Shown here: piece after piece, positions 4,383 to 63,967 of the stretch | How the letters are laid out: every line of letters begins with the position of its first letter | How positions within the stretch are numbered: position 1 is the stretch's first letter | Assembly (NCBI GenBank): GCA_964383935.1 | Contig: CAYLIE010000001.1 | Span: forward strand, 11,073 to 75,072 | Source: an uncultured Anaerolineales bacterium | GTDB lineage: Bacteria > Chloroflexota > Anaerolineae > UBA7937 | Length of the DNA stretch: 64,000 bases | Reading direction: 5' to 3' | Notes under the pieces: generated by a model | What the model saw: the letters and a program-made list of their open reading frames with translations, nothing else | What the model was told of the DNA's origin: nothing | The model's database searches: none | Position numbers and translations under genes: made by a program

Positions 4383-4587
4383 AGTTGACATGAGGTGGAT
4401 GATCTAACCCAAACACGAAAGGGAGTTCTAGGGAGGGGGAGGTCGTCATTTTGAAAGATGTCCGTCTAATACGCCGGTGGGGGGAATAGACGGAAAAATC
4501 GCGGCCTAATACCGAGTTAGGCGGCGTAGTACACATTCCGGGGATGGCACTCAGCCATTCGCGTAGACCCCCAAAAGGAGGTTTACC

Positions 4588-4959
4588 ATGAAAGAGCAAC
4601 ACAAGTACACTATCAACTTGGATTCAGAGTTCGGTTTCCTTGAGCTAATTGACGTACCAAGCCTCGTTGCCGCCTGCCAGGAGCAATGGTACAACCAGAC
4701 TCTTTGTCAGGTGAATGACTGTGTAGTTCGCCTCGGCGTCATGCAAGGGGAATTTCATTGGCACAAACATGATGAAGAAGACGAGTTCTTTTTCGTCCTC
4801 CAGGGCAAGTTTCTAATCGATCTAGAAAATGAGACGATAACACTTGAACCCCACCAGGGTTATACTATCCCGAGAGGGGTCGTACATCGTACCAGAGCAC
4901 CGGAACGGACGGCCATCCTTATGGTGGAGGCGAGTTCGGTAAAGCCAACTGGGGACTGA
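4588..4959 (+). CDS. cupin-domain protein
   Basis: Strong RBS AAAAGGAGG 7 nt before ATG. Cupin motifs G-EFHWHKHDEEDEFFFVLQG and PRGVVHRTRAPERTAILMVE. GC is about 45%, below the flanks. Confidence 0.7.
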   Translation: MKEQHKYTINLDSEFGFLELIDVPSLVAACQEQWYNQTLCQVNDCVVRLGVMQGEFHWHKHDEEDEFFFVLQGKFLIDLENETITLEPHQGYTIPRGVVHRTRAPERTAILMVEASSVKPTGD

Positions 4960-50065: not shown

Positions 50066-51628
50066 CTAGTCGCATTTTATCTCGAATTTCTCCGCATTTT
50101 CTTTCAATATCCCGATTTCTCGGAAAAGCGGCATAAAAGCGAGCTTGGGTCTGAGGGCGACTAGCCTCTTTTGGACCGGATCGCAATAGACCGCCTCAAA
50201 GAGAGCAGAGAGAATCTCGCTCCTCTCTTTTTTGGTCGCACTTTGCCAGGCCATCCTCATTGTCTTCAATTGATCCGCCGTGATGTCAATCTTGGCTCTC
50301 GGGGGCGGATTCAAGTTAGCTAGGGCCGCTTCGACTTCCGCCTTGCCTCGCCGGAATTGCTCTTCGTCTATCAGAACTTCCAAATAGAGGCTCTTAAGCC
50401 TCTTCAGTTTCTCCTCTAGCCTCGCTCGTTCTTGCTCTACGTTCGTTGTCTGCTCCCTTGCATTGACCAATTCCTCTATGCGAGTTTGCCAGTCAGGGGG
50501 CAGTTCAAGTCTAGTGATAATCTGCCCGATTTGCTCCTCAAGTCCTGATTCGTGAACCCGCCATCGGGGAGCGGTACAAGGGATTTGCTTGAAGTATGAC
50601 ATACAACGGTAGAAACTGACCCCGCTGCGGCTAGTCTCGCCCGTCATAGCCTTACCGCAGCCCTCGCAGATAAGCATCCCCCGGAAGAGATAGGTGCGAA
50701 ACTTAGGAGTGAAAGTTCGTGCCCTCCTCCGGTTGCGAATGCGAATCTCCTGGCACCTGTCCCACGACTCTTGAGAGACAATGGCCTGTTGCTTGCCTGG
50801 GAACCTCTGGCCCTTGTGGGTTACGTAGCCGAGATAGATTGGGCTCGTGATGGCTTTCTTTACGGTATCTCCTATCCAGAGTCTTCTACCCCAGCGAGTA
50901 TTCATCTGATAGCCCAAACGAGTCAATTCACGCGCCACACTGTTGTAGGAATACTGCCCTGTGGCGTAGAGTTCAAAAAGCTTTATCACCCCTTCACTGT
51001 CCACAGGATGCACAATCGGAATCCGCCCATCTCCTTGATCTTCGTGGCCCAAGTTGGGGCAAAGATGGTCTCCGCAGTTCGAGCACAGGCCAAGGCAATA
51101 TCCGGTTGCTAGATTGCCGAGCCACAACCCTTCCCTGGCTCGTTGGCTGAGCCCCTTCTTGATCTCCTGGCCCAAGTTCTCCGAATACCATTGGGCTAGG
51201 GCTGCAAGAATGTGCATTTGCAGTCGGCCCTCGGGCCGGGTGTAGTCGAAACGCTCTTGGATCGACACAAAGCCGATACCGTGGTCCGCCAACTGCCCCA
51301 GGTAGGTGATCGTATCTCGGAGGCTGCGGCTGAAACGATCCAACTTGTGGATTACCAAGACATCAAAAAGGCCAGCCTCTGCGTCCTTCATCATCTGCTC
51401 GAACTGTGGACGCCGAGCTGACCTTCCTGAGAAGCCAGGGTCAAGGTATTCGGAGACTACTTGCCAGCCTTCGGACTCGCAATACTCCCGGCAGCGCCCT
51501 ATTTGGGCGTCAAGTGAATAGCCCTCGGTCTGCTCTTCAGTTGATACACGCGCGTAAAGAACAGCCCTCACGATTGCACCCCAGGCTATTCTACCCGGAA
51601 GGTTGCACCTTGTCAACCCCTTGGTCAA
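50066..51628 (-). CDS. large serine recombinase (resolvase/invertase N-domain + recombinase + zinc-ribbon)
   Basis: VLYARVSTEEQ (catalytic Ser), DRFSRS, LGYQMNTRWGRRLW recombinase domain and a CEGCGK zinc ribbon. TTG start at 51628 or GTG at 51571. Confidence 0.85.
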   Translation of the reverse strand: MTKGLTRCNLPGRIAWGAIVRAVLYARVSTEEQTEGYSLDAQIGRCREYCESEGWQVVSEYLDPGFSGRSARRPQFEQMMKDAEAGLFDVLVIHKLDRFSRSLRDTITYLGQLADHGIGFVSIQERFDYTRPEGRLQMHILAALAQWYSENLGQEIKKGLSQRAREGLWLGNLATGYCLGLCSNCGDHLCPNLGHEDQGDGRIPIVHPVDSEGVIKLFELYATGQYSYNSVARELTRLGYQMNTRWGRRLWIGDTVKKAITSPIYLGYVTHKGQRFPGKQQAIVSQESWDRCQEIRIRNRRRARTFTPKFRTYLFRGMLICEGCGKAMTGETSRSGVSFYRCMSYFKQIPCTAPRWRVHESGLEEQIGQIITRLELPPDWQTRIEELVNAREQTTNVEQERARLEEKLKRLKSLYLEVLIDEEQFRRGKAEVEAALANLNPPPRAKIDITADQLKTMRMAWQSATKKERSEILSALFEAVYCDPVQKRLVALRPKLAFMPLFREIGILKENAEKFEIKCD

Positions 51629-52698
51629 GCACCCTTCGAAGGATTGTCGCTATCAACCTGCAAAGTTGCTCAACTTCCGCCGACATGATCCCGCCTCAAA
51701 GCCAAGCCGTCACCAGCGACGCCACACCAGGGAACCCGAAGTTCCCTGTACCTCCAACGGGGGTACCTCGATTCCATCGCCTTCTTCTACTCTGCCGTTT
51801 TCTCCCTTTAGGCGGAAGCCCGGCCTCGTCTCTCACATCTCACCTCAGCCGTGACTAGGCTACTTGAACCATCCGTATGCAGCGCACACTTCCGCTTCCG
51901 AATCATCTCGCTATGTCAGAACGCATCAATGCCACTCACTGGCACCAAGTCAGCAGTCTCTTCCTCAGGCCACGGTTGTCCTTCCTGTCGGCCTTCTTGC
52001 GGAAAATGAGGTCCCGGGCCGCATCTTTTCCGCTCAATAGACCTCGGCACCCTCCAGGCAGGTGCAACGCCTCATTGTCTCAACAAGCCTCCTAATCCAC
52101 GCGGCAAACTACAAGAGGGCCATACGGCTGATTGGAGGTTTTCTCGCACTCAGGACGAGGATCACCCTTCTCTCTTCTTAGAGCTCTCCGAATGTCAAGT
52201 CTCTTCCTGTTGTGCCTGATCCTACAGCTCATCCTGCATCTGGTTCGAACCGAGAAATTTACGTCGTAAAACTGGGACATCCGCCCGTACGTCAACTTTT
52301 GGATGAGCAGCCGACTGAGAAGGTACTGCCCCGGGACCGCCTCGAGCGCGGGCCGATGCTACGTCAGCGCTATGGGCTGGTCGGCCGCGCGCTCCCGTCA
52401 ACCTCGCCGACCCCCCGGCTCTTGGTCTTCTATGTTCATCTTCTTCCACAGATTGACCGATGAGTAACGCTTTCAAGGGCGACACCCTTTCCCCTGCGTC
52501 TCTTCCGATGTCACGAGCGACCTGGTGCGATACTTCTCGCACCAGGGTGGCCATCGTAGTTCCTCTCCGGAAACGCCCGTTCGCTGTCAAACAAAAAACC
52601 TCGCCATTTCGGCGAGGCAACGGATCAGCGCATCCTCTAGGGCCAGCCTTGCTGGGGAGCCAAAGCGGGCCCGCCTCCGGGGGATTTTCGTACGACCG

Positions 52699-53150
52699 TC
52701 AACGTTTCTTCTCTGGAACTGCGCCTTTGTTGACGATGTCGGCATGATGAGTTGGCGCTCCAATGATTTTGTGGTCCACCTTGGTCATAATGATAGATTT
52801 CTTGCCAAGGACACGCTCTCGCATCGGGCCTACATGAAGATCTCGGTCACCTGAAAGTGATCGGCCATCTCCGCGAGGTCCATCCGTTGAGCGAAGCACG
52901 CCCTGGAACAGGTCTCGGGACATGGCCACTTCGGCCAGCTGGAACACCAGCCGCCGGGCGTGGCGCACCAGGCGACCCCCAACCTTGATCAATTTCACCT
53001 GCACGCTGCGGAGCGACCAGTCCCTTACGGCCCGAGGAAGCCCCACCCGCCGGAGGAAGTTGCCCAGGTTGTACCCCAGGATGAACAGGGCCAGCCGCGC
53101 TTGGTTGGCCAGATATCGGTGGCACGACAGCCCAGTCCACTTGAGGGCCT
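52699..53150 (-). mobile_element. DDE transposase C-terminal remnant (IS4/IS1380-like), N-terminally truncated
   Basis: Continuous minus-strand frame ALKWTGLSCHRYLANQARLALFILGYNLGNFLRRVGLPRAVRDWSLRSVQVKLIKVGGRLVRHARRLVFQLAEVAMSRDLF, the conserved C-terminal helix region of DDE_Tnp_1-type transposases. Stop codon immediately upstream, no catalytic domain. Confidence 0.6.
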
Positions 53151-53572
53151 ACTTTGCTTTCACTGACGTACACAAACACCTTTGTCCGACGCAGTTGGGC
53201 CTCTCTTGAGGAGCGATGCCTCGGGAAAGTGTTCTCTCTATTGAGTTATGGGTAGACCTTTCGGTCGCGTATTCAGCCTATAAGCAGTTTGCTCCTGGCT
53301 GTTCGGCCCTTGACAGTTACTCAGGGGAGCTGAGCTCATTCAGCCTTCTCCGGCTTACCTTGAGCTTCTGTCTCGGATCGTCGCCTCCTTGGTAAACTAG
53401 TCGATAGTGATCGATCCTTAGGATTCCATCGGGAGCTGAGCTCTACCGACCATTTATCTGGCGGACCGATGAGAACCCTCAGAAGGGAAACAATCTGTTG
53501 GGCCATCCCTCCTGTTATGCGGCTTTTCCGGGGAGCCGCACAGAAACCCATTCACATAGACTAACAATAGTA

Positions 53573-53588
53573 TAGCACAGGTGTGCTA
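53573..53588. repeat. 16-bp perfect palindrome TAGCACAGGTGTGCTA
   Basis: TAGCACA-gg-TGTGCTA in the non-coding stretch between the transposase remnant and the tandem repeats. Confidence 0.4.
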
Positions 53589-53689
53589 ATCTGTCAAGGG
53601 GTTCAGTGAAAAAGACAGCCCGATTGATACCCGTAGGCAAGTCCGATCGGGGCTAGCGAGCTCTTGCGCATCGCGGTGAAGCGAGCACA

Positions 53690-53850
53690 GAGGGAGACAC
53701 GAACAAGAGATTTACGGCGTAAATTTCTTTGGTCCTGCTGCCTACCGGCCAGAGAGAGAGTGACGAGTTTTACGCCGTAAATCTCTCGGGGGCTCCTATT
53801 CGCCGTTGAGGGAGACACTGTGATAGGTTTTACGCCGTGAATCTTACATG
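53690..53850. repeat. three tandem roughly 58-60-bp imperfect direct repeats, each carrying a 13-15-bp palindrome TTTACG(G/C)CGTAAA
   Basis: Unit 1 agggagacacgaacaagagATTTACGGCGTAAATttc (palindrome 53710-24). Unit 2 ...gagTTTTACGCCGTAAATctc (53769-81). Unit 3 agggagacactgtgataggTTTTACGCCGTGAATctt (53829-41). Confidence 0.6.
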
Positions 53851-53940
53851 GCGCTTCGGAGAGTCTGCAAAGAAGGATAGCCGCCTTGCAGAAGATACAT
53901 GCTGGTCGGCTTCGGTAGGGCTGACAGTTATAGTATCTAA

Positions 53941-54144
53941 CTACCACTCACACTCACCACACGCCTCTTTTCCTTCACTGACAACCGTCCCGTCACCTAG
54001 TGATGCTCTCCCTCCTGCATCGACCCAAGTATCCAGCATCAGATTCTGGAACTCCACTCCATTGTAAGGCCTATGATGATCTTCTCCTCGTAAGATGCAT
54101 CGATCATGGATATGGATATCCATCTTCCTTATCAATCTCACCAT
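53941..54144 (-). CDS. small hypothetical protein (67 aa) downstream of small peptide C1
   Basis: Strong RBS AAGGAGGAA-ATG. MVRLIRKMDIHIHDRCILRGEDHH.... The 137-aa track ORF is more likely two genes. Confidence 0.35.
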   Translation of the reverse strand: MVRLIRKMDIHIHDRCILRGEDHHRPYNGVEFQNLMLDTWVDAGGRASLGDGTVVSEGKEACGECEW

Positions 54145-54215
54145 TTCCTCCTTTCTTGTGGTCTTCCCTTGGTAGTCATGTACATTGCTTTGTGAGACTC
54201 CAAGGCACGACTCTC

Positions 54216-54317
54216 CTACGGGCCGTCTTTCTTCCGCTTCTTCCCAAAACTCAGGGCTAGAGCCATAAGGATGATGGCAACCACCATGCCGAGCAACAGG
54301 CCGGGGATAGTTGGAAT
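54216..54317 (-). CDS. small hydrophobic peptide with basic C-terminal tail (paralogue C1; type I toxin-like)
   Basis: Frame gives (I)PTIPGLLLGMVVAIILMALALSFGKKRKKDGP*. Synonymous changes relative to C2 at 58127-58216. AAGGAGGTG RBS 9 nt upstream of an ATT codon. Canonical ATG (MVVAIIL...) 10 codons in. Confidence 0.45.
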   Translation of the reverse strand: MPTIPGLLLGMVVAIILMALALSFGKKRKKDGP

Positions 54318-54970
54318 AGATCACCACCTCCTTACTACTTTTCGACTTTAGCAAAAGCGTGTCCGGCGGTCAAGGGTCAGTCTCAGACGGTTCGTCATTG
54401 TGGGGCCTGAAGGCGGCGGTGCACCGCGCCCACCCCCACGGGCCGGAGCCGAAGTCCCCGCTGGAAACCCGCTCCCGAGACAGAGGGCTACTTAGTAGAT
54501 CAATCTTCTCTTATAGGAGGATGAGCGGCGGCTTTGGCAAGCCTAGCAGAGGTCGAAAACAGCTTGCCGACAGCCGACTCGGAGCGGGCGGACTTTCGGC
54601 TCTGATGAGAGGAGGCCTCTCGCAGGGGGCGAGAAGGCGTCCATATCCCCCACCGCCGTCAACTTTTCGATGTCAAAGAGAGCGGATTTCGAAGGATATA
54701 TCCCAAGAGGGATTTATCCCCCCCGGTTTTCGGGGCTCTCCGGGCTTCTAGGAGGCCGACCGTGCTCAGGAAAGCACCCCGAGCTTGCTTAGGGTTCACT
54801 TGCCCCTGCGCTTCGCTCACGGGGTGCTGAAAACAACCCTCCGGCCTTCGGCGGGCAACTCCCCCTTCCCAGGCGGAGATGACGGGCTGTTCTCTCCTTC
54901 GCGCGCTTCTACCATTTGACTCCAATTCTAACTATGCTACAATACATGCAAAGCTATGGAGGGAAGGCGA

Positions 54971-56770
54971 ATGCACATCACCCACTTCAGGGCTAAGCAC
55001 TTTCGCTGCCTCTATGATACGGACTGGATAGCAATCCACGATTTGACCGTTCTGATCGGTGAGAACGATGGAGGCAAGACGGCAACGATTGATGCCCTTG
55101 AGATTCTGCTCACCATTAAGCCCCCCGACACAGAAGATTTTTCTTTCGTGCCAGGGAGCCAGGAGCAGCACGAACAGGAAATGGTTTTGGAGGCAAAATT
55201 CACCCTTGAGTCGAACGACGTTTCTGCGTTGCAGGAGTTCTGCAGGTACAGTAGCGAGCAGCTAATCATTCGTCGGGATTTCTCCCCGGATTCTGCTGGG
55301 CCATGGACATATAGAACGATGGTTCACGCTGATGAAAGGCTGTCTGCAGATCTGGCCGCCTATACCGTAGCTACACTCCGTGAGATAGCGGAGGAACACG
55401 GGATAGACGTCCCCTTGAGTCCAAAGGCCGACATCGTCGATGCTATCGAGACATGGCTCGCCACTCAGCCGTTGTTTGAGGGATACCGAGAGTTGCCGCG
55501 TGCCGCTCGCGACCTGCTTCCCCAGGTTCAAGTGTTCAGGTCAGCACAGGCACTTGACCCGCAGAGAGAGGTAGACGCTGTTCTCCGAACTGTCTTCGTT
55601 GCCGAGATAGATGGTGAAACATATCGGGGTAAACTGGGTGACATATCCGCTCAAATTGAAGCTAGCCTCAACGAGCGTGTGTCCAGGTTAACACCCGTCG
55701 TTCAAAAATATCGTCCTGAGATCACGGAAGTACGCGTGGATCCTCGTTTCGACTATTCGCGCGGGCTAGCCACGTCGCGCCTCCAACTCATCGGACAGGA
55801 TGGCCACCCCATAAGCCTTGACAAACGCGGAGAAGGCATCAAGCGCCAAGTGACACTGGCTGTCTACGAGTGGAATTCGGAGCTTCTAGCCGCTCGTCCG
55901 GAGGAAGGTGCCCGCCCTCTCCTCCTGGCTTTCGACGAACCCGATAGTCATCTCGACTATTACTCTCAGCGCAAGATATTTGAGATTATACGGAGTCTCG
56001 TCAAACCGGGGATTCAGATAGTCGTCTGCACCCACTCGCTTAATCTCATAAACCGCGTCCCCCTAACCAACATAAATCATTACTGCTTGGACGATCACTA
56101 TTGCACGCGGGTGACCGCTTTGCAGAGCGATGATCCCGCCACGCTTGAGTATTTCGTCGACGACATAGGCAAGAATATGGGCTTGGAAAACAGCCTCATG
56201 TTTCACGAGCGTTGTTTTCTCGTTGTGGAGGGCCCAAGTGAAATGAACGCTTTACCCCCGCTCTTTCGCGTTTGGCACGAGGACGGGCTCAGTCTAACAT
56301 CTGCTGGTATCCGGTTGCTGAACGGTCAGAACAACGTTGGAGCGAGGAATTTCGCCAAGTTCCTTAACGACAATAATCGCAATGTCGTCTTCATGCTCGA
56401 TTCGGATTCTCGAACAGATCCCACAGGCCGCGTCTTCTCTGAGGAAAGCCTTCGTCGCGCAGGTTTTGATATCGATCGCCAGGTCTTCTTCGTCGGAGAT
56501 AGGGAGTTCGAGGATGCGTTCAGTGACACGCTTTGGGCCAGAGTCGGCAATACTAGATGGCCTCCAGAAGACGGGCGACCTTGGCAACCGGATGATTTTT
56601 CAGGCCGCAGGTCCCAAGACAAGAAATTCTCCGATGGCCTTTGCGCCGCATTCCGAGCGTCCAAGCCCAAAATAGCTTATGAACTTGCGAAGCGTGTAGC
56701 CGACCCCACTGAGATCCCCGCTCAAATCCAACGGTGTTTTAAGCACGCACTGGCGTTGGCGAATTCCTAG
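54971..56770 (+). CDS. OLD-family ATP-dependent endonuclease (N-terminal AAA_15/21 ATPase + C-terminal TOPRIM)
   Basis: RBS GGAGGGAAGG. MHITHFRAKHFRC...IHDLTVLIGENDGGKTATIDALEIL (Walker A), LLLAFDEPDSHLD (Walker B), TOPRIM CFLVVEGPSEMNALPPLF...VVFMLDSD. Confidence 0.75.
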   Translation: MHITHFRAKHFRCLYDTDWIAIHDLTVLIGENDGGKTATIDALEILLTIKPPDTEDFSFVPGSQEQHEQEMVLEAKFTLESNDVSALQEFCRYSSEQLIIRRDFSPDSAGPWTYRTMVHADERLSADLAAYTVATLREIAEEHGIDVPLSPKADIVDAIETWLATQPLFEGYRELPRAARDLLPQVQVFRSAQALDPQREVDAVLRTVFVAEIDGETYRGKLGDISAQIEASLNERVSRLTPVVQKYRPEITEVRVDPRFDYSRGLATSRLQLIGQDGHPISLDKRGEGIKRQVTLAVYEWNSELLAARPEEGARPLLLAFDEPDSHLDYYSQRKIFEIIRSLVKPGIQIVVCTHSLNLINRVPLTNINHYCLDDHYCTRVTALQSDDPATLEYFVDDIGKNMGLENSLMFHERCFLVVEGPSEMNALPPLFRVWHEDGLSLTSAGIRLLNGQNNVGARNFAKFLNDNNRNVVFMLDSDSRTDPTGRVFSEESLRRAGFDIDRQVFFVGDREFEDAFSDTLWARVGNTRWPPEDGRPWQPDDFSGRRSQDKKFSDGLCAAFRASKPKIAYELAKRVADPTEIPAQIQRCFKHALALANS

Positions 56771-56778
56771 GAGGGGCC

Positions 56779-57039
56779 ATGAACAGAAACGAAATCGTCG
56801 ACACCATAAGACGTGCCGGAAGAGAAAAAACAATTCTCTGGATACGAGCATACGAAGCCGATGGCTCAATCGAACCCAGAGAGGTTGAGCCCTATAGCTT
56901 TCGTCCATCAGGCACCACGGAGTGTTTCTTCTTTTACTGCCTGCTCCACAAGGGAACTCGTAACTTCCTGGTTGACAAGATCATTGAAGTGCGACTCACC
57001 GACAAGCGCTTTGAACTGCGCTGGCCCATAGAACTATAG
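56779..57039 (+). CDS. stand-alone WYL-domain protein coupled to the OLD nuclease gene
   Basis: ATG 8 nt after the OLD stop, with RBS overlapping the stop. EVEPYSFRPSGTTECFFFYCLLHKGTRNFLVDKIIEV matches the WYL ligand-sensing fold. Confidence 0.6.
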   Translation: MNRNEIVDTIRRAGREKTILWIRAYEADGSIEPREVEPYSFRPSGTTECFFFYCLLHKGTRNFLVDKIIEVRLTDKRFELRWPIEL

Positions 57040-57261
57040 ACGTTCATTCAGCTCGAATAGCCAGTCGGCCAAGAGACACGTTTCTTCGTCAAATGACACT
57101 TAGACGAACAAAAAGCCCGTGGGCCCGCGATCGCTTTCCGATCCTTTCAAACCTTCTCATCTTGCCAGAGCCAGTAAAACCAGGCCGGGTGAAGTGGACG
57201 GCTTCGCCTTTTAAGAATTGACCCTCTCGCTCTTTTCAAAGACTTTGCAGGAAATAAAAAC

Positions 57262-57286
57262 CGCACCCCGAAGGGTGCGTTCTGTT
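57262..57286. terminator. bidirectional rho-independent terminator between the OLD-WYL operon and the NYN gene
   Basis: AAATAAAAAC-CGCACCC-cgaa-GGGTGCG-TTCTGTT. The minus strand reads hairpin then GTTTTTATTT. Confidence 0.7.
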
Positions 57287-57345
57287 AAACCAATATATTT
57301 ATATCACAGCATGACATTTTTGTCAAGTTTTTCAAGTAGGATCAC

Positions 57346-57888
57346 TTATCTTCGTTGAACCGTTTGTTGTATATCCTCAAGGAATCGGTATTCTTGGCAG
57401 GCAAGCTTTAGCTCCCAAGAGAGGGTTTTGCGAGAAGAGAAAACCACCAGCGTTTTCCCCAAATCCCTCAGGCGCTTTCCAAGATCGGCAAAGTCACTGT
57501 CCCCCGAGAACAAAATGACGCAATCCAAATCCGCCCTCTCTAGAAGAATATCAGCGGTCATCTCCACATCGAAATTGGCCTTGTATACAAAGGTGTATCC
57601 ATACAACTTCCAATAGGGATGGTCCTTGTCAATGGCGATCTTTTTGAGAGGTTTAGTGATGGTGGTAAAGCCGATCTTATCCAAATACCGCAAATATTTG
57701 GGCATTTTGCGATCGCCCTTCTTTAGGCCGGTGTAGTAGCGAAACTCCAGCACGTCAAACTCTTGTTGAACAAGGGCTTTGACCTTCTCCCAGTCGATAC
57801 TCCAGCCCAGCTTGCGCTGGGTGTAGAACATGTTGGCGCCGTCAATATATACTTTTGCTCTGGGTTTTTCCCGAGAAAGATGGGCCAT
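57346..57888 (-). CDS. NYN-domain (LabA-like, PIN-fold) putative RNase
   Basis: KVYIDGANMFY...DCVILFSGDSDFADL NYN motifs. Leaderless arrangement, TGCTATAAT -10 ending 6 nt before ATG. Confidence 0.7.
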   Translation of the reverse strand: MAHLSREKPRAKVYIDGANMFYTQRKLGWSIDWEKVKALVQQEFDVLEFRYYTGLKKGDRKMPKYLRYLDKIGFTTITKPLKKIAIDKDHPYWKLYGYTFVYKANFDVEMTADILLERADLDCVILFSGDSDFADLGKRLRDLGKTLVVFSSRKTLSWELKLACQEYRFLEDIQQTVQRR

Positions 57889-58057
57889 GGGTCTATTATA
57901 GCACCCAGCCCCTTACTTCAACAAGTTGACTAGCGAGGAGCACCCCGGGGGTTCTAAGGCAGAAGTAGAAGCCCAAGCCAAAATTTCAAAATCAACCCAA
58001 CCGATCTGCCACTTGCCACCACGACGGCGCGCCTCTATAGAGACTTAACACCACGAT

Positions 58058-58082
58058 GGCATGCTTGTATATACAGCATGCC
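58058..58082. repeat. 25-bp near-perfect palindrome between small peptide C2 and the NYN promoter
   Basis: GGCATGCT-TGTATATACA-GCATGCC (one-base bulge). Confidence 0.45.
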
Positions 58083-58126
58083 ACAGACGGTCAAGCGCGC
58101 TCACGAAAGCCACCGGCCCCGCCCAT

Positions 58127-58216
58127 CTACTTTCGTTTCCTGCCGATAGACAGTGCCAGCCAGATCAGTATTGTGGAAAGCAGCATGCCCAGCAACAGTC
58201 CAGGGATAGTTGGAAT
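58127..58216 (-). CDS. small hydrophobic peptide with basic tail (paralogue C2)
   Basis: (I)PTIPGLLLGMLLSTILIWLALSIGRKRK*. GGAAGGAAG RBS 9 nt upstream of ATT. First 10 codons identical to C1 at protein level with synonymous nucleotide changes. Confidence 0.45.
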   Translation of the reverse strand: MPTIPGLLLGMLLSTILIWLALSIGRKRK

Positions 58217-58383
58217 GAATCATCACTTCCTTCCTCTCTCATCGTAGCATAGAGAAAACGGGCCGATCAATATGAAGAGGTGTTCGCAACTAGGGCAGGA
58301 AAGTCAGGGATGGGACCACCGGAGGAGACCACCTCGGCCCACTGCGAATTGATCATTGACAGGGGTATCCTCAATTTGCTACT

Positions 58384-59166
58384 GTGAGAATGGAGGGGAT
58401 GCCCGGAGCTATCCATTGGGCTTCTGGAGGGCGCACCAGCCATGCAATGTGCCACAACCAGCCGCCCGGGGAAGCCGAATCTGTTCTCATGAAGGAAAAG
58501 CAACCCGTTCACCACACATCTGACGAACACGCTGTGTCATCGGAGCAGAGGAAAGAATATCCCCTCGGCAGAAGCATCGTTAGACGGCTCAAGAAAACAC
58601 TCAACGAAGAGTGGGACTCTTGGCTGGTGGAGGAAGACGAGGATACCTTCAAGACCCTCTACCTGACAGAGCGACGGGTGTGCATCCCCGAACATCTGCT
58701 TAGCGGCGAGATCATGGAGGACATCATGAGTCTTTTCTACTACCCCCTCTCCACCGTCAGGGAGGAGCTCAAGGAGCGCACAGAGGCAAAGGAGTTCATC
58801 TCTATCTTTGTCCAACCCTCATACACGGACACCTCTTTTGCCGTGATGGTGGCCGGAGAAAAAGCTCTGTTGACCGTCTCTGACAAGGCGTGGAACTTCT
58901 ACTGGGATAGTGAAGAGGAGATGGTGAAGGAGCTGGAGAGTTGGTATCAGATTGCTGAAGCCAGGCTCAAGGGCGGACCCAGGCTCTTCGGCGGTGATGC
59001 CTGGGCACTTGAGACCCTGCTACGGCAGGTGAGGGAAGAGGACATTCCCAGGCTGCAAGAGGAAAGCCGCTGGCGGGCTGACGAACTCCGCAGAGCCCTT
59101 GATCTTCTCTCCCGCTTGCTTGAAGAGCCACGGGATAGAGAAGAATCGCTCCAGGACCTCAGCTAG
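58384..59166 (+). CDS. hypothetical protein (acidic, helical)
   Basis: 260-aa ORF in the island. Start uncertain (internal ATGs at 58443 and 58492). No family recognised. Confidence 0.4.
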   Translation: MRMEGMPGAIHWASGGRTSHAMCHNQPPGEAESVLMKEKQPVHHTSDEHAVSSEQRKEYPLGRSIVRRLKKTLNEEWDSWLVEEDEDTFKTLYLTERRVCIPEHLLSGEIMEDIMSLFYYPLSTVREELKERTEAKEFISIFVQPSYTDTSFAVMVAGEKALLTVSDKAWNFYWDSEEEMVKELESWYQIAEARLKGGPRLFGGDAWALETLLRQVREEDIPRLQEESRWRADELRRALDLLSRLLEEPRDREESLQDLS

Positions 59167-59261
59167 GGGAGAGCAGGGAACAGAGGAGACCCCAGGCTCC
59201 CAGGAACTTGTTCCTTTGCAGGGCGAGAAAGGCCGCGAGCTACTTATACTATTATATATAT

Positions 59262-59822
59262 ATGAAGGAACGTGAACCCGATTTCGAAAACGAGAAGATA
59301 CGGGCCTGGCTGATAGGGCCTTCCTTAGAGGGTCCCGCGGAAAAGGAGCAAGATCTTGAAGGTCTCGAGAAAGACCCAACTGTCATAACCATTGATGAGG
59401 AGACCGAAGAGATATTCGAGAGTCGCGCCTATCACTTCAGGCCTGGCCCGGAGACCTTCTCTTTTCTCCTTGGCTCGCTAGCCAAGACGATGGGTGAGAA
59501 TCTTGCTGAGATCCCTCCGGAGGAGCTTGTGGATCATGTGATGGACATGATCGAAGGCACTGGTATCAAGTTCCTGGCCAAGCGGCGCAAGGAGGATGGT
59601 CGAATCACCTTTATTTTGGTGGGGATCAGTTGCCATTCACGGTCGCTCCTCGATCGCCAGGAATTGGTCAAGGAGGCCGGTTATCGCAAGGCGGTCCAGG
59701 AGTTTGAAGAGCTCCCCCTTTCAAGGGCGATCCTTTCGCCACCGGCAGTGGTCACCCTTGAGGAGTGGCGCCGCTATGCTGAGGAAGGTCCCCTCTCAAG
59801 AAGCGAACGCGAGGGAGAATAG
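59262..59822 (+). CDS. hypothetical protein
   Basis: MKEREPDFENEKIRAWLIG.... 186 aa from ATG 59262; track ORF starts at 59208. No family recognised. Confidence 0.4.
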   Translation: MKEREPDFENEKIRAWLIGPSLEGPAEKEQDLEGLEKDPTVITIDEETEEIFESRAYHFRPGPETFSFLLGSLAKTMGENLAEIPPEELVDHVMDMIEGTGIKFLAKRRKEDGRITFILVGISCHSRSLLDRQELVKEAGYRKAVQEFEELPLSRAILSPPAVVTLEEWRRYAEEGPLSRSEREGE

Positions 59823-59874
59823 AAAGAGCCAGACTTGAGCTGGGAAGGAAGAAGCCTCCAGGCCACGTTGATGC

Positions 59875-59982
59875 CTACCTGGGCTTTCTCTTCCGTCCCT
59901 TCTCAACCATGACCGGAAGAGCCAGTAACCATATGAAGACCGTGATTCCTACAAGAAGCCATTCTAGAGGCGTCAAGGCCAT
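59875..59982 (-). CDS. small hydrophobic peptide with basic tail (paralogue C3, canonical ATG)
   Basis: AAGGAGGTG RBS, 9 nt, then ATG. MALTPLEWLLVGITVFIWLLALPVMVEKGRKRKPR*. Same RBS spacing and architecture as C1 and C2. Confidence 0.55.
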   Translation of the reverse strand: MALTPLEWLLVGITVFIWLLALPVMVEKGRKRKPR

Positions 59983-60501
59983 ATGTTCAATCACCTCCTT
60001 CGGAGAAAGAGACAACTCATCAAGTATCCAGATATAAACAGGGTCAGTCCTATGAGTGTCACTCGAAAGGAAAACCCTCGCTCGGAAAGAATCTGTCCGA
60101 AGACGAGGGCTCCAATCGCTATATTTGCCAGATCGACTAACTTGTCCGCAGAAAGCCTTCGATGATCCTCGTTGAAGCGGATAACCATGCACTCTGATGT
60201 TAGCACATTGAGCGAGATGCTGTCAATACCACAATACGGAGTATCCTAGGCGAAGCATAGACAGCCGACCTGCACATAGCGATCTGGTCTACATTTCCCC
60301 CCTTTACCGCCTTTTCCTTATTTTGTTTTCCCTCGCGCCCGCGCGAAAGAGGGGATTGAGAGAGCTGGGGGAGGGTAGACGATATGCCTATGTGCAATCC
60401 GATTCCACTGACATCCGCTAATGAGAAATGCTCAAGGTGTCCCTGAGTAATAGTCTGATCAGGATGGAGCTTATGCGCCTTTGTATGACTCTTGGTAATA
60501 G

Positions 60502-60530
60502 TTGACTGTTACGGTGCCATAGGTTATACT
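60502..60530 (+). promoter_or_regulatory. sigma70-type promoter for the PAPS-reductase-like/PLD/NTPase operon
   Basis: TTGACT (60502-07), 17 nt, TATACT (60525-30), 65 nt before the ATG. Confidence 0.5.
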
Positions 60531-60595
60531 GGTTGCAAACCTAAATCCTTCTCTGCAGGTTCGCAATCTCGCACGCTACAGAAACGGGCAGGTGA

Positions 60596-61321
60596 ATGCA
60601 GGTACCAGAGTGGCTGGGGCATCTGCAAGAGGCTGAAACCGCGTACGTGCTGTTTTCGGGCGGCAAAGACAGTTCGGCGGCCCTGGTGTACACCAAGGAG
60701 CTGAGTGACGAGTTTTGCGAATCTCCTCGATTAGTAGCGGTCCATGTGGATACGACGGCGGGACTTCCTGCTGTTGAAGAGTTCTCAAAGCAGTTCTGTA
60801 GTCATGTTGGCGTGCCTCTTACGGTTTTGAGGCCTGAAGAGGACTATTTTAGTCTAGTGAAGCGTTGGGGCGTGCCGCGCCCTAGGGCGAGGTGGTGTTG
60901 CTTCCATCTGAAAATAGAGCCGATCAAGTTGTTCCTTGATGGGCAGAAGAATTACGTGGTCTTGGACGGGATGCGAAGGCAGGAATCACGGAAGCGCTCC
61001 CAGTATCCGCCCACCTACGATCATCCCCATTTTGGGCTGGTAATTCACCCAATTATAGATTGGACAAAGGACAGAGTTGAAGATTTCATTGCCTCAAGGG
61101 ACTTGCCTATCAATCCAGCGTACGAAATGGGATTCAGTTCCTGGGAGTGCTGGTGTGGTGTGTTCAAGCGAAAGTGTGAATTTGAGAAACTGCGGGATGT
61201 GGATAGGGACTTCTTCATGAAACTGGTGGAACTGGAGGATTCCCTTACAAGTGGGTATGCTTACGCCTATTTTGATGGCAAACCCTTCTACCTAAAGGGT
61301 CTACTACAGGAGAAAGATTGA
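60596..61321 (+). CDS. PP-loop ATP pyrophosphatase of the PAPS-reductase/DndC-SspD-like family with Cys cluster
   Basis: PP-loop 'VLFSGGKDSSAAL'. Cys-rich segments RARWCCFH and WECWCGVFKRKCEF suggest an Fe-S site. 241 aa. Confidence 0.65.
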   Translation: MQVPEWLGHLQEAETAYVLFSGGKDSSAALVYTKELSDEFCESPRLVAVHVDTTAGLPAVEEFSKQFCSHVGVPLTVLRPEEDYFSLVKRWGVPRPRARWCCFHLKIEPIKLFLDGQKNYVVLDGMRRQESRKRSQYPPTYDHPHFGLVIHPIIDWTKDRVEDFIASRDLPINPAYEMGFSSWECWCGVFKRKCEFEKLRDVDRDFFMKLVELEDSLTSGYAYAYFDGKPFYLKGLLQEKD

Positions 61322-61322
61322 T

Positions 61323-61859
61323 TTGCAAGTGGAAGTTGTGGCAAACCAGCATCATCGTGGAGTGATAGAACGCTTATTGGAAGGAAGGCCGTTCCGCGTG
61401 CGGCTGTACGCACTACACGTTCATGATGTCCAACTGATCAGCTCTTCGCTAGGATTGCGCTTAATCAGGCTATTGGGGTCAGATTGTACAGTAACGGTAG
61501 CTTTTGGAGACAGGCTTTGGGACACGGAGACGGGCAGCCCCAGGAACGAGTTATGTAGGCAAGTCCTCGACTTCTTGAAGGAGATCGAGGATTATGGGGC
61601 AAACGTGTGGCACGTACCAGATCCCTTGCTACACGCAAAAGTCCTATATGTTGAGGAAGAAATGCCGGGTGCCGGGCGAACGAGTCGTGCGTTGGTGAGT
61701 AGCGCGAACTTCACGGAGACGGGTATTGGCGGTAGCAACTTTGAACTGGGGATCGGTTTCGAAGACTTAGAGGCGTGCCCAATCCTGGCACAGAGCATAA
61801 AGAAGTTCACCGATGGAGTACTCGGTGCAGCCAGACCTATACCTTGGGAAGGAGTTTAG
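61323..61859 (+). CDS. phospholipase D (HKD)-like nuclease-family protein
   Basis: Single HKD-like motif HAKVLYVEEE...GRTSRALVSSANFTETG. Start 2 nt after the previous stop. 178 aa. Confidence 0.55.
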   Translation: MQVEVVANQHHRGVIERLLEGRPFRVRLYALHVHDVQLISSSLGLRLIRLLGSDCTVTVAFGDRLWDTETGSPRNELCRQVLDFLKEIEDYGANVWHVPDPLLHAKVLYVEEEMPGAGRTSRALVSSANFTETGIGGSNFELGIGFEDLEACPILAQSIKKFTDGVLGAARPIPWEGV

Positions 61860-62978
61860 ATGATGTGGTTCGAGAGGTACAACTTCAAAGAAGATCCCTA
61901 CGTGGTGCGCGATCCATTCGAGACTTCACTAGAGTTCATCCAATGGGATAGGGAGGACCTCGTACACAAGAAGAATCTTGACTTTTTCATAAGGGATGTC
62001 GTAGGTGGCTATCGCGTTGGATTGAAGGTGTATGGCGCCAGTGGCAGTGGGAAAACCTGGTTGCTGAGATATCTCCAGAAAGAATTGGTGCGGCAGCTTG
62101 GTGACGAGGTAGTTGTTCTCTATGGAAAGATTCCGCGGTTTGATCCCACGTTCTGGGTCTTCTATGACATGGTAGTGAAGGGTTGGCTCGACCATCGAAG
62201 TAGAATCCTAGAGACCATCGCAAGGACAGCCGGTGACGTGGAATCCGCATGGCAGGAGCACATAGGAGACGCTGACTTGGCAAGCTGTCTATGGAGGCTA
62301 AAGTACAAGGCTGACGAAAAGGTAACAATCAGCCTTTGTGAGCATTGGTTAAGGGGCACAAAGATTCCGGTTCGTGACCTGAGCCAAGTCGGTGCAACGG
62401 CTTCACTGGATCGCGACTACTCGAGGTATTCCGTCCTTGTCCAATTATTGGACCTAGCCTTGCAGGCTTTCGGCACATGCGTCCTCATGGTTGATGAGCT
62501 TGAGAATGCTCCTGGGTCACTCGCTCGGGCGCTCGGCGATGCCCTCAGAGACCTCTTGGATAGCTTCTCCGAGCGATTCGCATTGGCATGCAGCTACACA
62601 GCTCAAGCGGCGGACGAGTTGCTCGATAGGGGATACGGAGAGTTCTTGTTCAGGCGCTTGGAGTGGCACGTAAAGCTTGATCCAATCACGCCTGACAACG
62701 CTCCTGGCGTTTTTAGGGTCCATCATGGCACGTACCGAAAGCCTGGACATGAGGGCGATCAATTGGCTCCCTTCACGGAGCAAGCACTACGCAGGTTGTT
62801 GAGGGAAATGGAGCCAGAAAAGTGGTATCCGGGGTTCATATTCCCTAATTGTGGAGTCTTAGGGCGTCTAGCGAGTGAAGCAAGTGCTGATACGATAGAC
62901 GAGACTTTTGTGGAGACGACGGCGTTTCAGAAGCGGGAAGTCTTTCCATACCTGGGGCCAGAGTCCAGACTTATATAG
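61860..62978 (+). CDS. P-loop NTPase (AAA/ORC-like) of unknown family
   Basis: ATG immediately after the PLD stop with an AAGGAG RBS. Walker A 'VYGASGSGKTWLLRYL' and Walker B 'CVLMVDELEN'. 372 aa. Confidence 0.55.
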   Translation: MMWFERYNFKEDPYVVRDPFETSLEFIQWDREDLVHKKNLDFFIRDVVGGYRVGLKVYGASGSGKTWLLRYLQKELVRQLGDEVVVLYGKIPRFDPTFWVFYDMVVKGWLDHRSRILETIARTAGDVESAWQEHIGDADLASCLWRLKYKADEKVTISLCEHWLRGTKIPVRDLSQVGATASLDRDYSRYSVLVQLLDLALQAFGTCVLMVDELENAPGSLARALGDALRDLLDSFSERFALACSYTAQAADELLDRGYGEFLFRRLEWHVKLDPITPDNAPGVFRVHHGTYRKPGHEGDQLAPFTEQALRRLLREMEPEKWYPGFIFPNCGVLGRLASEASADTIDETFVETTAFQKREVFPYLGPESRLI

Positions 62979-63967
62979 GAGAGCTTGCCGTCCCGACCAG
63001 CTATGGCTGACTGCACTATGCCTTCATTCGCCAATCGCCTAATTAGCCGCCGCAAAGTCTTCTCTTCGAGTACGCAGTACCGTTCTATCAGTAGGCTCAT
63101 ACAGACATATACACTGATGGAACGTACGTCAGACAAGCGCAGCTGTGGTCTCTCAAAGAGGGCGTAGGCCTTACGGAACAGCTCGAGAAAACGCGCGCGG
63201 CTAGGCTTGTGCTCATATCGAAAGTCAGGGAGACATCCAGGCGCGTCACCTACGTAGGCAGATGCTGCCCAATAGATCTTCTCCTGCAGTTCAGCGCCCT
63301 CCTTGGAGAAGAGACCGAGCAGCTTCTGTGCCATGCTTGTTAACTGAAGCCGTTGAGGATTCACGAGGCCCAGTTGCTGCAACCAAAATCGGAAACAATC
63401 AAAGTTGTTCCGCACTTTCCTTGGTGGGGAGTCTGGCTGCCTAGAGAAGTGCAAGGACAAATACGCCTTGTCCTCCCAGGTGCTACAGGTGCTATTGGAC
63501 AAGACCCTTTGGCCGTAAGACGTGATGACTCGTTCTATGGGTCCGCCTGCATTCTGAGAGATGGCTCCTAGAGCAGAACTGAACTGCAACGGGAGGTACA
63601 GGGCAAGAGCGCGAAAATAGAATACCTTTTCTGCAAGTTCAAGGGTTTTGTTTGACTTTGCAGGCACCAGAGCGCAAAGCGCTTTTCCCTCGCTGGAAAG
63701 CACATAGCCGCCATTCTCGCGCGTCACTAGTCCGAGTGATTCCATGGCGCGCAAATGCCTCTTGATCACCTTGACATTCGTCAGACCCAGCTCTTTCTGA
63801 ATCAAGGGCACAAGCATATCAGTTTCCATAAGTCCTTCGGGGCGCATGATGTGGCAAATTCCCGTGAAGCGGTGCAATTGCCCCTCTGACGTGGTCAGGT
63901 CTGCCAGGAATCCAGTGCGCGAGACTTCCATGCGATTGGTATTCGCTTCCTTATCTACTATGTCCAT
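62927..63967 (-). CDS. hypothetical protein with winged-helix (MarR/HxlR-like) DNA-binding region
   Basis: LIQKELGLTNVKVIKRHLRAMESLGLVTRENGGYVLSSEGKAL. 346 aa. Convergent with the NTPase gene, ends overlapping by about 50 nt. Confidence 0.4.
   Translation of the reverse strand: MDIVDKEANTNRMEVSRTGFLADLTTSEGQLHRFTGICHIMRPEGLMETDMLVPLIQKELGLTNVKVIKRHLRAMESLGLVTRENGGYVLSSEGKALCALVPAKSNKTLELAEKVFYFRALALYLPLQFSSALGAISQNAGGPIERVITSYGQRVLSNSTCSTWEDKAYLSLHFSRQPDSPPRKVRNNFDCFRFWLQQLGLVNPQRLQLTSMAQKLLGLFSKEGAELQEKIYWAASAYVGDAPGCLPDFRYEHKPSRARFLELFRKAYALFERPQLRLSDVRSISVYVCMSLLIERYCVLEEKTLRRLIRRLANEGIVQSAIAGRDGKLSYISLDSGPRYGKTSRF

Follow-up and report, generated by a model that had tools for sequence, protein, structure and literature searches.

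Palindromic repeats beside a conserved promoter in a relic of an integrated Anaerolineae element: a putative operator array

The window analyzed in this study is a stretch of 64,000 nucleotides from an uncultured Anaerolineales bacterium (GenBank assembly GCA_964383935.1, contig CAYLIE010000001.1, positions 11,073 to 75,072 of the forward strand). It carries three tandem short repeat units, each with a palindromic site, which lie upstream of a strong promoter and belong to an undescribed integrated mobile element of Anaerolineae-type bacteria. It is probable that the units are protein-binding sites of this element. An even case can be made that the array provides operators or loading sites to a dimeric protein, which would bind there and act on the adjacent promoter in a manner similar to KorB at OB and KorA at OA.

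Reading of the sequence together with a repeat search revealed a 33-nt unit that is present three times, with start-to-start distances of 58 and 60 bp, at the very place where a first-pass annotation of the window had noticed three tandem repeats of roughly 60 bp with a palindrome each. Sites of the type TTTACG-N-CGTAAA are named O2 in the following, and sites of the type TAGCAC-N4-GTGCTA are named O1. The units and an additional site are:

53694-53726, no strand: short unit 1 ("P", promoter-proximal), core TTTACGGCGTAAA at 53711-53723
53752-53784, no strand: short unit 2 ("M"), core TTTACGCCGTAAA at 53769-53781
53812-53844, no strand: short unit 3 ("D"), core TTTACGCCGTGAA at 53829-53841, with one mismatch
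52258-52270, no strand: fourth site, TTTACGTCGTAAA, which stands alone about 630 bp ahead of a serine recombinase gene start

The unit copies are 70-79% identical to the reference copy, and each contains a 13-bp dyad of the form TTTACG-N-CGT(A/G)AA. The shared sequence upstream of the core that had been reported for units 1 and 3 is GAGGGAGACAC and is present in both. The dyad of unit 1 extends to 25 bp (53705-53729, AAGAGATTTACG-G-CGTAAATTTCTT, in full AAGAAATTTACGCCGTAAATTTCTT), and site D doubles as the site of the first of the long units described below. By simple arithmetic, 64 kb should contain about 0.004 exact matches to the 13-mer if its centre is left free, and when up to two mismatches are allowed, the shuffled window contains a mean of 0.5 matches compared to four matches in the real one. 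The homology of the fourth site to other copies is limited to the site itself, and its flanks are unrelated to the arrays. The strongest argument against a chance origin of the units is their conservation in at least ten related loci.

Two further explanations of the repeats were rejected. In line with the first-pass annotation, the units do not form a CRISPR array, because they are only 70-79% identical to each other, the putative spacers are kept between genomes with an identity of 0.82, and there are no cas genes nearby. A decayed coding repeat, which had been named as a possible pitfall, is not in agreement with the relatives, where every frame is interrupted by stop codons in the majority of copies, indels of 1, 2, and 4 nt occur, and no frame is open across the array.

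To find relatives, one genome per species was scanned for two sites 35-60 bp apart, which yielded 65 loci (numbered with an L below), none of them identical to the window. The region of about 53167-54206 has 79-86% identity to at least ten copies in metagenome-assembled genomes (MAGs) of Anaerolineae and in metagenomes. BLAST comparisons revealed about 82% identity over about 1040 bp to three loci in MAGs of Anaerolineae/Anaerolineales (L025, L031, L065) and, to the same extent, to a locus on a contig that has been binned as Bathyarchaeia (L040). A conserved 21-mer, which is absent from the viral contigs scanned, retrieved four further metagenome loci (L066-L069), and look-ups of a neighbouring protein added five more (L070-L072, L077, L078). 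At least three copies are present in one and the same MAG, W31_47 (L031, L065, and L080/L081). The recurrence in related elements, which the first-pass annotation had left to be checked, is thus observed.

The 13-bp cores are the best-conserved columns of the array and are on par with the promoter. Their mean pairwise identities are 0.95 (P), 0.93 (M), and 0.91 (D), in comparison to 0.93 for the promoter, 0.89 for the leader, 0.82 for the spacers, 0.79 for the stretch between sites and promoter, and 0.75 for the long unit. In about 50 sites of related loci the arms TTTACG and CGTAAA are near-invariant, while the central base can be G, C, A, or T. Invariant arms and a free centre would be expected if a dimer left the central base unread, and the proposal of dyad-symmetric sites of the kind bound by dimers is well in line with the sequences. 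The proximal cluster consists of two sites in L070 and L077, and the unit number elsewhere is up to three. Since the spacing (57-61 bp) and the unit number (two to three) are variable, the sites look autonomous and not like parts of a rigid phased structure.

The functional reading direction of the array region is the minus strand of the window. The array had been placed just upstream of the cargo of a genomic island; it is indeed situated at the edge of defence cargo in a mobile element, but its functional orientation is the opposite one. Besides the three units, the control region contains the following features:

53842-54206, minus strand: remainder of the long unit (about 387 bp when site D is counted in; one to three tandem copies in relatives)
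53597-53569, minus strand: sigma-70-type promoter TTGACA-17-TATACT with an upstream TG (11 of 12 consensus positions matched)
53573-53588, no strand: second palindrome, O1, TAGCACAGGTGTGCTA, located exactly within the promoter spacer between -35 and -10
53167-53562, minus strand: 5' part of a structured leader or non-coding RNA (about 393-400 nt of about 535 nt; the 3' end is missing in the window)

On the minus strand, the region starts with cargo that is variable and consists mostly of oppositely oriented defence genes. Long units of about 387 bp come next, in one to three tandem copies, and every copy contains a single site and the near-invariant block AGTTAGATACTATAACTGTCAGCCC, which is found at 53915-53945 (minus strand) in the window. 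Then come the two to three short units of 57-61 bp that make up the array, a spacer of about 100 bp, the promoter with O1, a leader of about 535 nt, a ribosome-binding site, and an open reading frame (ORF) of 508 aa. The homology of the window to its relatives stops at about 54203-54206 on the cargo side.

A consensus scan of the local region yielded one strong sigma-70-type promoter, and it is invariant in all copies. Transcription probably starts near 53562 and heads to lower coordinates, and on the minus strand the sites of the O2 cluster are upstream of this start, with their centres about 155, 213, and 273 bp away. We see the chances that the sites act on this promoter as balanced. A 16-bp palindrome had been noticed before as a separate feature; it is present (O1, about 120 bp from unit 1), but it is not separate, because it lies within the conserved promoter. 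The arms of O1 are invariant across copies and its four central bases are variable, and O1 probably serves as an additional operator, bound by a protein other than that of O2.

The leader contains two GAGCUCAGCUC hairpins, and the 393-nt part that is left in the window folds better than shuffled sequences (z -4.2). A full-length leader is present in L066 (4735-5273). The consensus of ten sequences comprises 125 pairs, including a long-range helix that closes a domain of about 300 nt, and four pairs exhibit compensatory changes. At the 3' end, a terminal hairpin is followed by a U-rich tract just ahead of the ribosome-binding site. These features mark the leader as a conserved structured RNA. 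Rfam 15 did not yield a match at the gathering score for the whole window. With a threshold of E<=10, only two chance-level matches to eukaryotic RNAs were obtained for 51600-55000 (E 2.3 and 5.4, far below gathering), both at 52149-52679 and thus outside of array and leader, and no match at E<=1 was found for L066 2300-5400. Several other views of the region were considered and rejected. A small ORF in the leader is disfavoured by frameshifting indels, the 5' end of a group II intron, prompted by GTGCG at the start of the leader, is without Rfam support, and a single-strand promoter of the Frpo/ssi type of leading regions, in which roughly 300 nt would form a long hairpin as single-stranded DNA, is not supported by the 285-bp long unit, the folds of which do not surpass those of shuffled sequences on either strand (z -0.7 and -0.8).

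The backbone of the element could be reconstructed from the relatives, where the element was sampled over about 35 kb in Anaerolineae-type loci, with the left end outside of the sample. The first backbone gene encodes the 508-aa protein, and it is followed by a MazE-PIN pair in some loci, ORFs of 199 and 188 aa, and, as the fifth gene, a 1079-aa protein with a DUF6094 and an SNF2/DEAD-type helicase part. Next are RadC, an 82-aa ORF, a 660-aa UvrD-like helicase, ORFs of 99, 142-155, and 257-270 aa, and a DnaG-type primase, which has 351 aa or is split in two. The primase and helicase genes are located 4-12 kb downstream of the array. Four contigs contain unrelated host-like or defence genes within about 1 kb past the primase gene, and therefore the right end of the element seems to be just after it. 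The cargo of these elements includes AbiE, Avs-like NTPases, and OLD/Gabija-like proteins, with CBASS nearby.

The 508-aa family has 12 members among 5.8 billion proteins. Pfam does not contain a family for the proteins of 508, 199, 188, 82, 99, 155, and 257 aa, and a tblastn search with the 508-aa protein against plasmid and phage collections was without a match. Its AlphaFold model (pLDDT 69) consists of a long coiled coil and a beta domain, and a Foldseek comparison of the model with the PDB retrieved nothing at E<=0.001. A locus with a distant 508-aa homologue (L073) has no O2 sites. In addition, a protein of 339 aa that is encoded on a 3.3-kb contig (P0012) joins the first 78 residues of the 508-aa family to the C-terminal portion of a large serine recombinase. 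This chimera is a rearrangement of the type seen in the window and suggests that such events between the gene of this family and a recombinase gene might be recurrent.

O2 sites are also found outside of the proximal cluster. Upstream of it they recur every ~387 bp. An extra site is present about 390 nt into the 508-aa gene, at a fixed position, in L025, L040, L066, L070, L077, and L078, and another one, again at a fixed position, lies inside the 1079-aa gene in L066, L070/L076, L077, and L078/L079. In an intragenic site of L070 the central base is changed, which alters the amino acid, and the arms are kept. Four loci contain a second, partial copy of the array beyond the cargo genes. The array copies that flank the cargo are at 1373-1991 and 8334-9357 in L078 and at 4452-4953 and 7042-7737 in L065, and array segments beside cargo were also found in L077 (4549-4925) and L066 (2389-3058). 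The genes between the two direct copies encode AbiE, an nSTAND/Cap4 NTPase, transposases of the IS21 and IS3 types of insertion sequences (IS), and a metalloprotease. Because cargo is sandwiched between direct array segments, it seems that the array region behaves as a hotspot of cargo insertion.

The identical 13-mer is also present in other bacteria. About 28 of the scan loci are from Streptomyces, Planobispora, Planomonospora, and Nonomuraea (G+C about 0.7) and carry it in clusters of two to six sites that are about 40-80 bp apart. The flanks are tc...ga or gtg...cac, in contrast to ga(a/g)a...(a/t)(c/t)(t/c) in Anaerolineae. One locus matches an annotated linear plasmid of Streptomyces albidoflavus, where the sites are intergenic and precede a gene for a "ParB/RepB/Spo0J family partition protein", followed by "ParA". 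A ParB homologue is encoded in about 20 of the actinomycete loci. In the Streptomyces plasmid loci (among them L075 on NZ_CP109248.1, L004, L005, L010, L023, L024, L027, L044, L047, L048, L050, and L056), a site centre is 86-94 bp upstream of the parB start in all nine cases with a complete gene start, and in all 13 cases evaluated for parA a site centre follows the stop of this gene at a distance of 16-19 bp. The ParB proteins of this group contain the Pfam domains ParB_N and HTH_ParB and give weak matches to the KorB domain. The fixed offsets to parB and parA suggest that the 13-mer behaves as the cognate ParB site in that clade, and TTTACG(S)CGTAAA is a candidate for an undescribed parS of an actinomycete plasmid ParB clade. 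A literature search for the 13-mer did not retrieve a relevant paper.

Some other occurrences are listed here for completeness. The loci of Planobispora and Planomonospora contain up to 14 copies with gtg...cac flanks. Two or three MAGs of Prevotella/Prevotellaceae contain many clusters per genome, each with two to three copies of the 13-mer about 21, 42, or 66 bp apart (L001-L003, L006-L009, L012, L015-L019, L021, L028, L029, L034-L036, L038, L049, L051, L055, L059, L060, L062, and L063). They look like a dispersed repeat family, and a parB gene is nearby only in L001. In a MAG of Pseudomonadota, two sites (L061, 321-381) are situated just upstream of a gene for a regulator with an AcaB domain, after which a DUF3158-like ORF follows that stayed below the threshold (E 0.0018, 18.4 bits versus a cut-off of 27 bits). 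This context is suggestive of an integrative conjugative element (ICE).

The layout of the Anaerolineae sites resembles those of the KorB/KorA system of plasmid RK2 and of BisD of ICEclc, and hence a dimeric silencing regulator that is accompanied by an O1-binding protein is proposed. Among the options of the first-pass annotation, an operator array is thus the one that is best favoured by the evidence. A sequence-specific dimer would bind to each O2 palindrome, and the sites would nucleate or load a regulator that acts from a distance on the promoter. A second protein at O1 would act jointly with the O2-loaded regulator. As a result, the backbone operon (508-aa ORF, methylase-helicase, RadC, UvrD-like helicase, and primase) would be kept silent as long as the element is integrated. 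The sites with their conservation and distribution, the promoter, and the lack of a coding frame are shown, and we infer from them that a protein binds, that it represses, that it acts from afar, and of what kind it is.

Several results weigh against the proposed operator array, most of them from the search for the binding protein. A hidden Markov model of ParB, which was built from actinomycete proteins and applied with filters off and E<10, did not match in the window or in the related loci scanned with it (L025, L031, L040, L065-L070, L073, and L076-L080). L081, which was not part of that scan, contributed three backbone ORFs to the families compared by hhalign. When seven backbone families and, as a single sequence, one flanking ORF were compared with ParB by hhalign, the probabilities did not exceed 1.3%, and ParA was not found in the roughly 35 kb of element or in the window. 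The neighbours of the array differ from locus to locus, with a Trans_reg_C gene in L025, an XRE gene in L065, NYN/ATPase genes in L031, and AbiEi/AbiEii in L070, L077, and L078, and no regulator candidate is conserved beside it. Furthermore, an operator array leaves the long-unit arrays that are split by cargo unexplained. The occurrence of the 13-mer both in Anaerolineae and on actinomycete plasmids could be due to convergence, and the scan that found the plasmids required paired sites and hence favoured arrays.

A KorA-like gene was not found either. A search for a Rep or regulator gene elsewhere on the element had been suggested as a check; a Phage_rep_O-like gene does exist, in the L070 group only. 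Two candidates for the binder were rejected. AbiEi is encoded in only three locus groups. The LexA-like gene after the primase gene in L080 has no O1- or O2-like site close upstream, and weak matches are present only 5-6 kb downstream. The winged helix-turn-helix (wHTH) protein encoded at 62927-63967, which the first-pass annotation had put forward, is not supported as the binder, because its best match is below the threshold (E 0.011, 16 bits versus a cut-off of 35 bits) and it is part of the cargo and not conserved with the array. As the assignment to the ParB/KorB family fails on the cognate gene, the claim is restricted to "works like" and does not extend to "is a member", and we regard it as doubtful that the binder belongs to this family. 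In a variant of the proposal, which seems quite unlikely, O2, O1, and the leader would form a silencing circuit of the KorA/KorB type with a non-ParB binder, and the long-unit array would serve in addition as a landing pad for cargo. Such a binder would be a new DNA-loading protein among the unannotated ORFs (508, 199, 188, 82, 99, 155, and 257 aa) or a hijacked host protein.

The copy in the window has a different surrounding than the complete copies. No convincing gene is present in 51629-54955, and the array is flanked by the following genes and gene fragments:

50066-51628, minus strand: large serine recombinase (Pfam domains Resolvase, Recombinase, and Zn_ribbon_recom)
52894-53166, minus strand: C-terminal fragment of an IS-type DDE transposase (Pfam DDE_Tnp_1_4)
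54956-56770: OLD/GajA-like ATPase-nuclease, cargo
57346-57888: NYN nuclease, cargo
60596-62978: AAA ATPase, cargo

The transposase fragment abuts the leader at about 53167 and replaces its last 140 nt as well as the 508-aa gene, and it apparently marks the deletion or insertion that removed the backbone. The 508-aa gene is missing from the window according to tblastn, and the other backbone genes were likewise not found in it. Therefore, the window copy is a truncated relic. The array had been viewed as a part of the island. It does belong to a mobile element, but the backbone of that element, from the 508-aa ORF through the primase, is absent here, and the window array controls at most a truncated leader transcript. 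The defence cargo (54956-62978) comprises also two family-less ORFs (260 and 204 aa), a PAPS-reductase (SspD/BrxP/DndC-like), and a PLD protein (DrmC-like); the genes for PAPS-reductase, PLD protein, and AAA ATPase look like one operon. Look-ups of the exact sequences of the OLD and recombinase proteins of the window did not retrieve a record. The arrays of the relatives are not adjacent to a serine recombinase gene, and the element ends after the primase, and thus a link between the array and the recombinase of the island is doubtful. Two observations were made in the cargo region. A non-coding stretch just upstream of the OLD-family gene (54715-54907) is 77% identical to 195 bp of L070 (6936-7130), where the counterpart sits between AbiEi and a 319-aa gene and is inverted relative to the array. 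A direct repeat of 62 bp is found at 54275-54336 and 58174-58235 (82% identity).

The arrangement of genes in the window leads to the question whether the array is functional there. It is a serious possibility, although not one that we would favour, that it is a functionless remnant and decaying DNA in this window, whatever its role is in intact elements. The missing 508-aa gene and backbone, the leader cut by the transposase fragment, and the arm mismatch of unit 3 would be in agreement with decay. Nevertheless, the window copy is 82-86% similar to intact copies, which is the same as the similarity among them, its promoter and O1 are intact, and mismatches in the arms occur also in intact copies (L025, L040, L068). 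Such a remnant is compatible with an operator function of the array in the intact elements and not opposed to it. The units could also act on the RNA level, as transcribed hairpins that serve as processing sites, terminators, or antitoxin-like repeat RNA. The 181-nt array indeed folds better than shuffled sequences (z -3.1), which can be attributed to the pairing of the palindromes with each other. We regard an RNA element as highly improbable, because a promoter scan of both strands gave no prediction ahead of the array, the stems are rich in A and U and have loops of 1-3 nt, the arms are invariant and not covarying, and neither an Rfam match nor a toxin-like gene downstream was found.

The other alternatives assign a DNA-based function to the array that differs from regulation. 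The sites could be a pure centromere, with parS-type sites for a ParB that is encoded in another part of the element or by the host and segregates the excised, replicating element. The fixed distances between the same 13-mer and parB-parA on actinomycete plasmids, the resemblance of tandem palindrome units to plasmid centromeres such as sopC of F, and the primase and helicases of the backbone, which make an autonomous replicating phase plausible, are all in favour of it. It is nevertheless unlikely, not only because of the absence of ParB and ParA described above, but also because in every copy the cluster keeps a fixed place next to an invariant promoter with a second operator, which a centromere alone would not need. 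Iterons of a replication origin, where an initiator of the element would bind to the palindromes to open the origin beside the replication genes, are improbable. It would be suitable that the dyad repeats are situated in an extended non-coding region and that the element has genes for a DnaG-type primase and for UvrD-like and SNF2-type helicases, the iterons of the lambda origin are also dyad-symmetric, and in one relative Phage_rep_O-like and DnaA_N-like genes are present at a distance of 5-6 kb. However, the Rep_O-like gene is confined to the L070 locus group, sites are present also inside genes up to 7 kb away, and the spacings of 57-61 bp and about 387 bp are very different from the iteron phasing of 20-24 bp. 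DnaA boxes are absent from the window and from the arrays of L066, L078 has a single box with one mismatch, and an AT-rich stretch is missing (the lowest G+C content in 40 bp is 0.33-0.35; in the window and in L066 this minimum is located at the promoter), so that the replication origin suggested by the first-pass annotation has little in its favour. The same is true for its suggestion of recombination sites. If long and short units were substrates of site-specific or homologous recombination, they could be used for the exchange of defence cargo; AbiE, nSTAND NTPase, and IS elements are found between array B and array A in L078, L065, L077, and L066, the array is the boundary between backbone and cargo in every copy, the window included, and a large serine recombinase is encoded 2 kb away in the window. 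Serine recombinases have a 2-bp crossover and tyrosine recombinases a spacer of 6-8 bp, and a dyad centre of a single base is incompatible with both. As the arrays of the relatives have no recombinase adjoining them and the conserved intragenic sites would be left unexplained, we regard recombination or cargo exchange as distinctly improbable. Accessory sites of the res type were rejected because of the odd dyad centre and of a recombinase that is of the large type, 2 kb off, and not found near the arrays of relatives.

If the proposal of an operator array is true, it would provide an entry point to the control of integrated elements in Chloroflexota that form an unannotated family and carry defence genes. 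TTTACG(S)CGTAAA is proposed as the undescribed cognate site of an actinomycete plasmid ParB clade, and its presence in elements of another phylum in which no ParB was found would be either convergence or evidence for a new binder. This link of the motif to actinomycete ParB together with its ParB-less context is most worth following. For the window alone the message is a modest one: a relic array is left at the site of a backbone deletion beside a defence island.

Comparison with known systems reveals RK2 KorB/KorA as a close parallel. In RK2, OB sites are located from 4 bp to more than 1 kb upstream of promoters, and OA, the site of KorA, lies over the -10 region (PMC11790492). KorB is a CTP clamp of the ParB family that slides from OB to the promoter (PMC11790492). 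Both systems have in common short palindromes with a free central base in many copies across one mobile element, site distances that range from near the promoter to more than 1 kb, and a second, different palindrome at the core promoter. In contrast to the IncP plasmid, the Anaerolineae element is integrated and known from sequence alone, its sites are arranged in tandem units of 57-61 bp and about 387 bp, O1 lies in the promoter spacer and not over the -10 region, and no KorB/ParB-family or KorA-like gene was found in the parts of the element that were sampled. The core of OB, TTTAGC(G/C)GCTAAA, can be set beside TTTACG(N)CGTAAA of the Anaerolineae sites as a palindrome of the same type. The parB-parA loci of Streptomyces, Planobispora, and Planomonospora have the identical 13-bp core TTTACG(S)CGTAAA, also in clusters, but there it flanks a ParB/ParA operon at fixed offsets, and no such operon was found with the Anaerolineae arrays.

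ICEclc is a second parallel, because it is an integrated element. Its BisD is a ParB-like CTP clamp with palindromic loading sites, two of which are intragenic (PMC12409273), and the bisS sites control promoters that are many kb away (PMC12409273). The Anaerolineae element shares with it palindromic sites on an integrated element, some of them inside genes. In contrast, bisS has the sequence GAGCTATCCCC-n-GGGGATAGCTC, which is different from O2, and BisD is an activator and a recognisable ParB-fold protein that is encoded on the ICE, an equivalent of which was not found here. Tandem direct units, each with a dyad bound by a dimer, are well known from the sopC centromere of F and from the iterons of the lambda origin and plasmid oriV. 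They resemble the Anaerolineae array as tandem dyad units in the non-coding DNA of a mobile element, while the latter has a variable unit length of 57-61 bp, and no partition or initiator gene was found directly next to it. The element itself is undescribed, but the kind of array that it carries is already known from plasmids and integrative elements.

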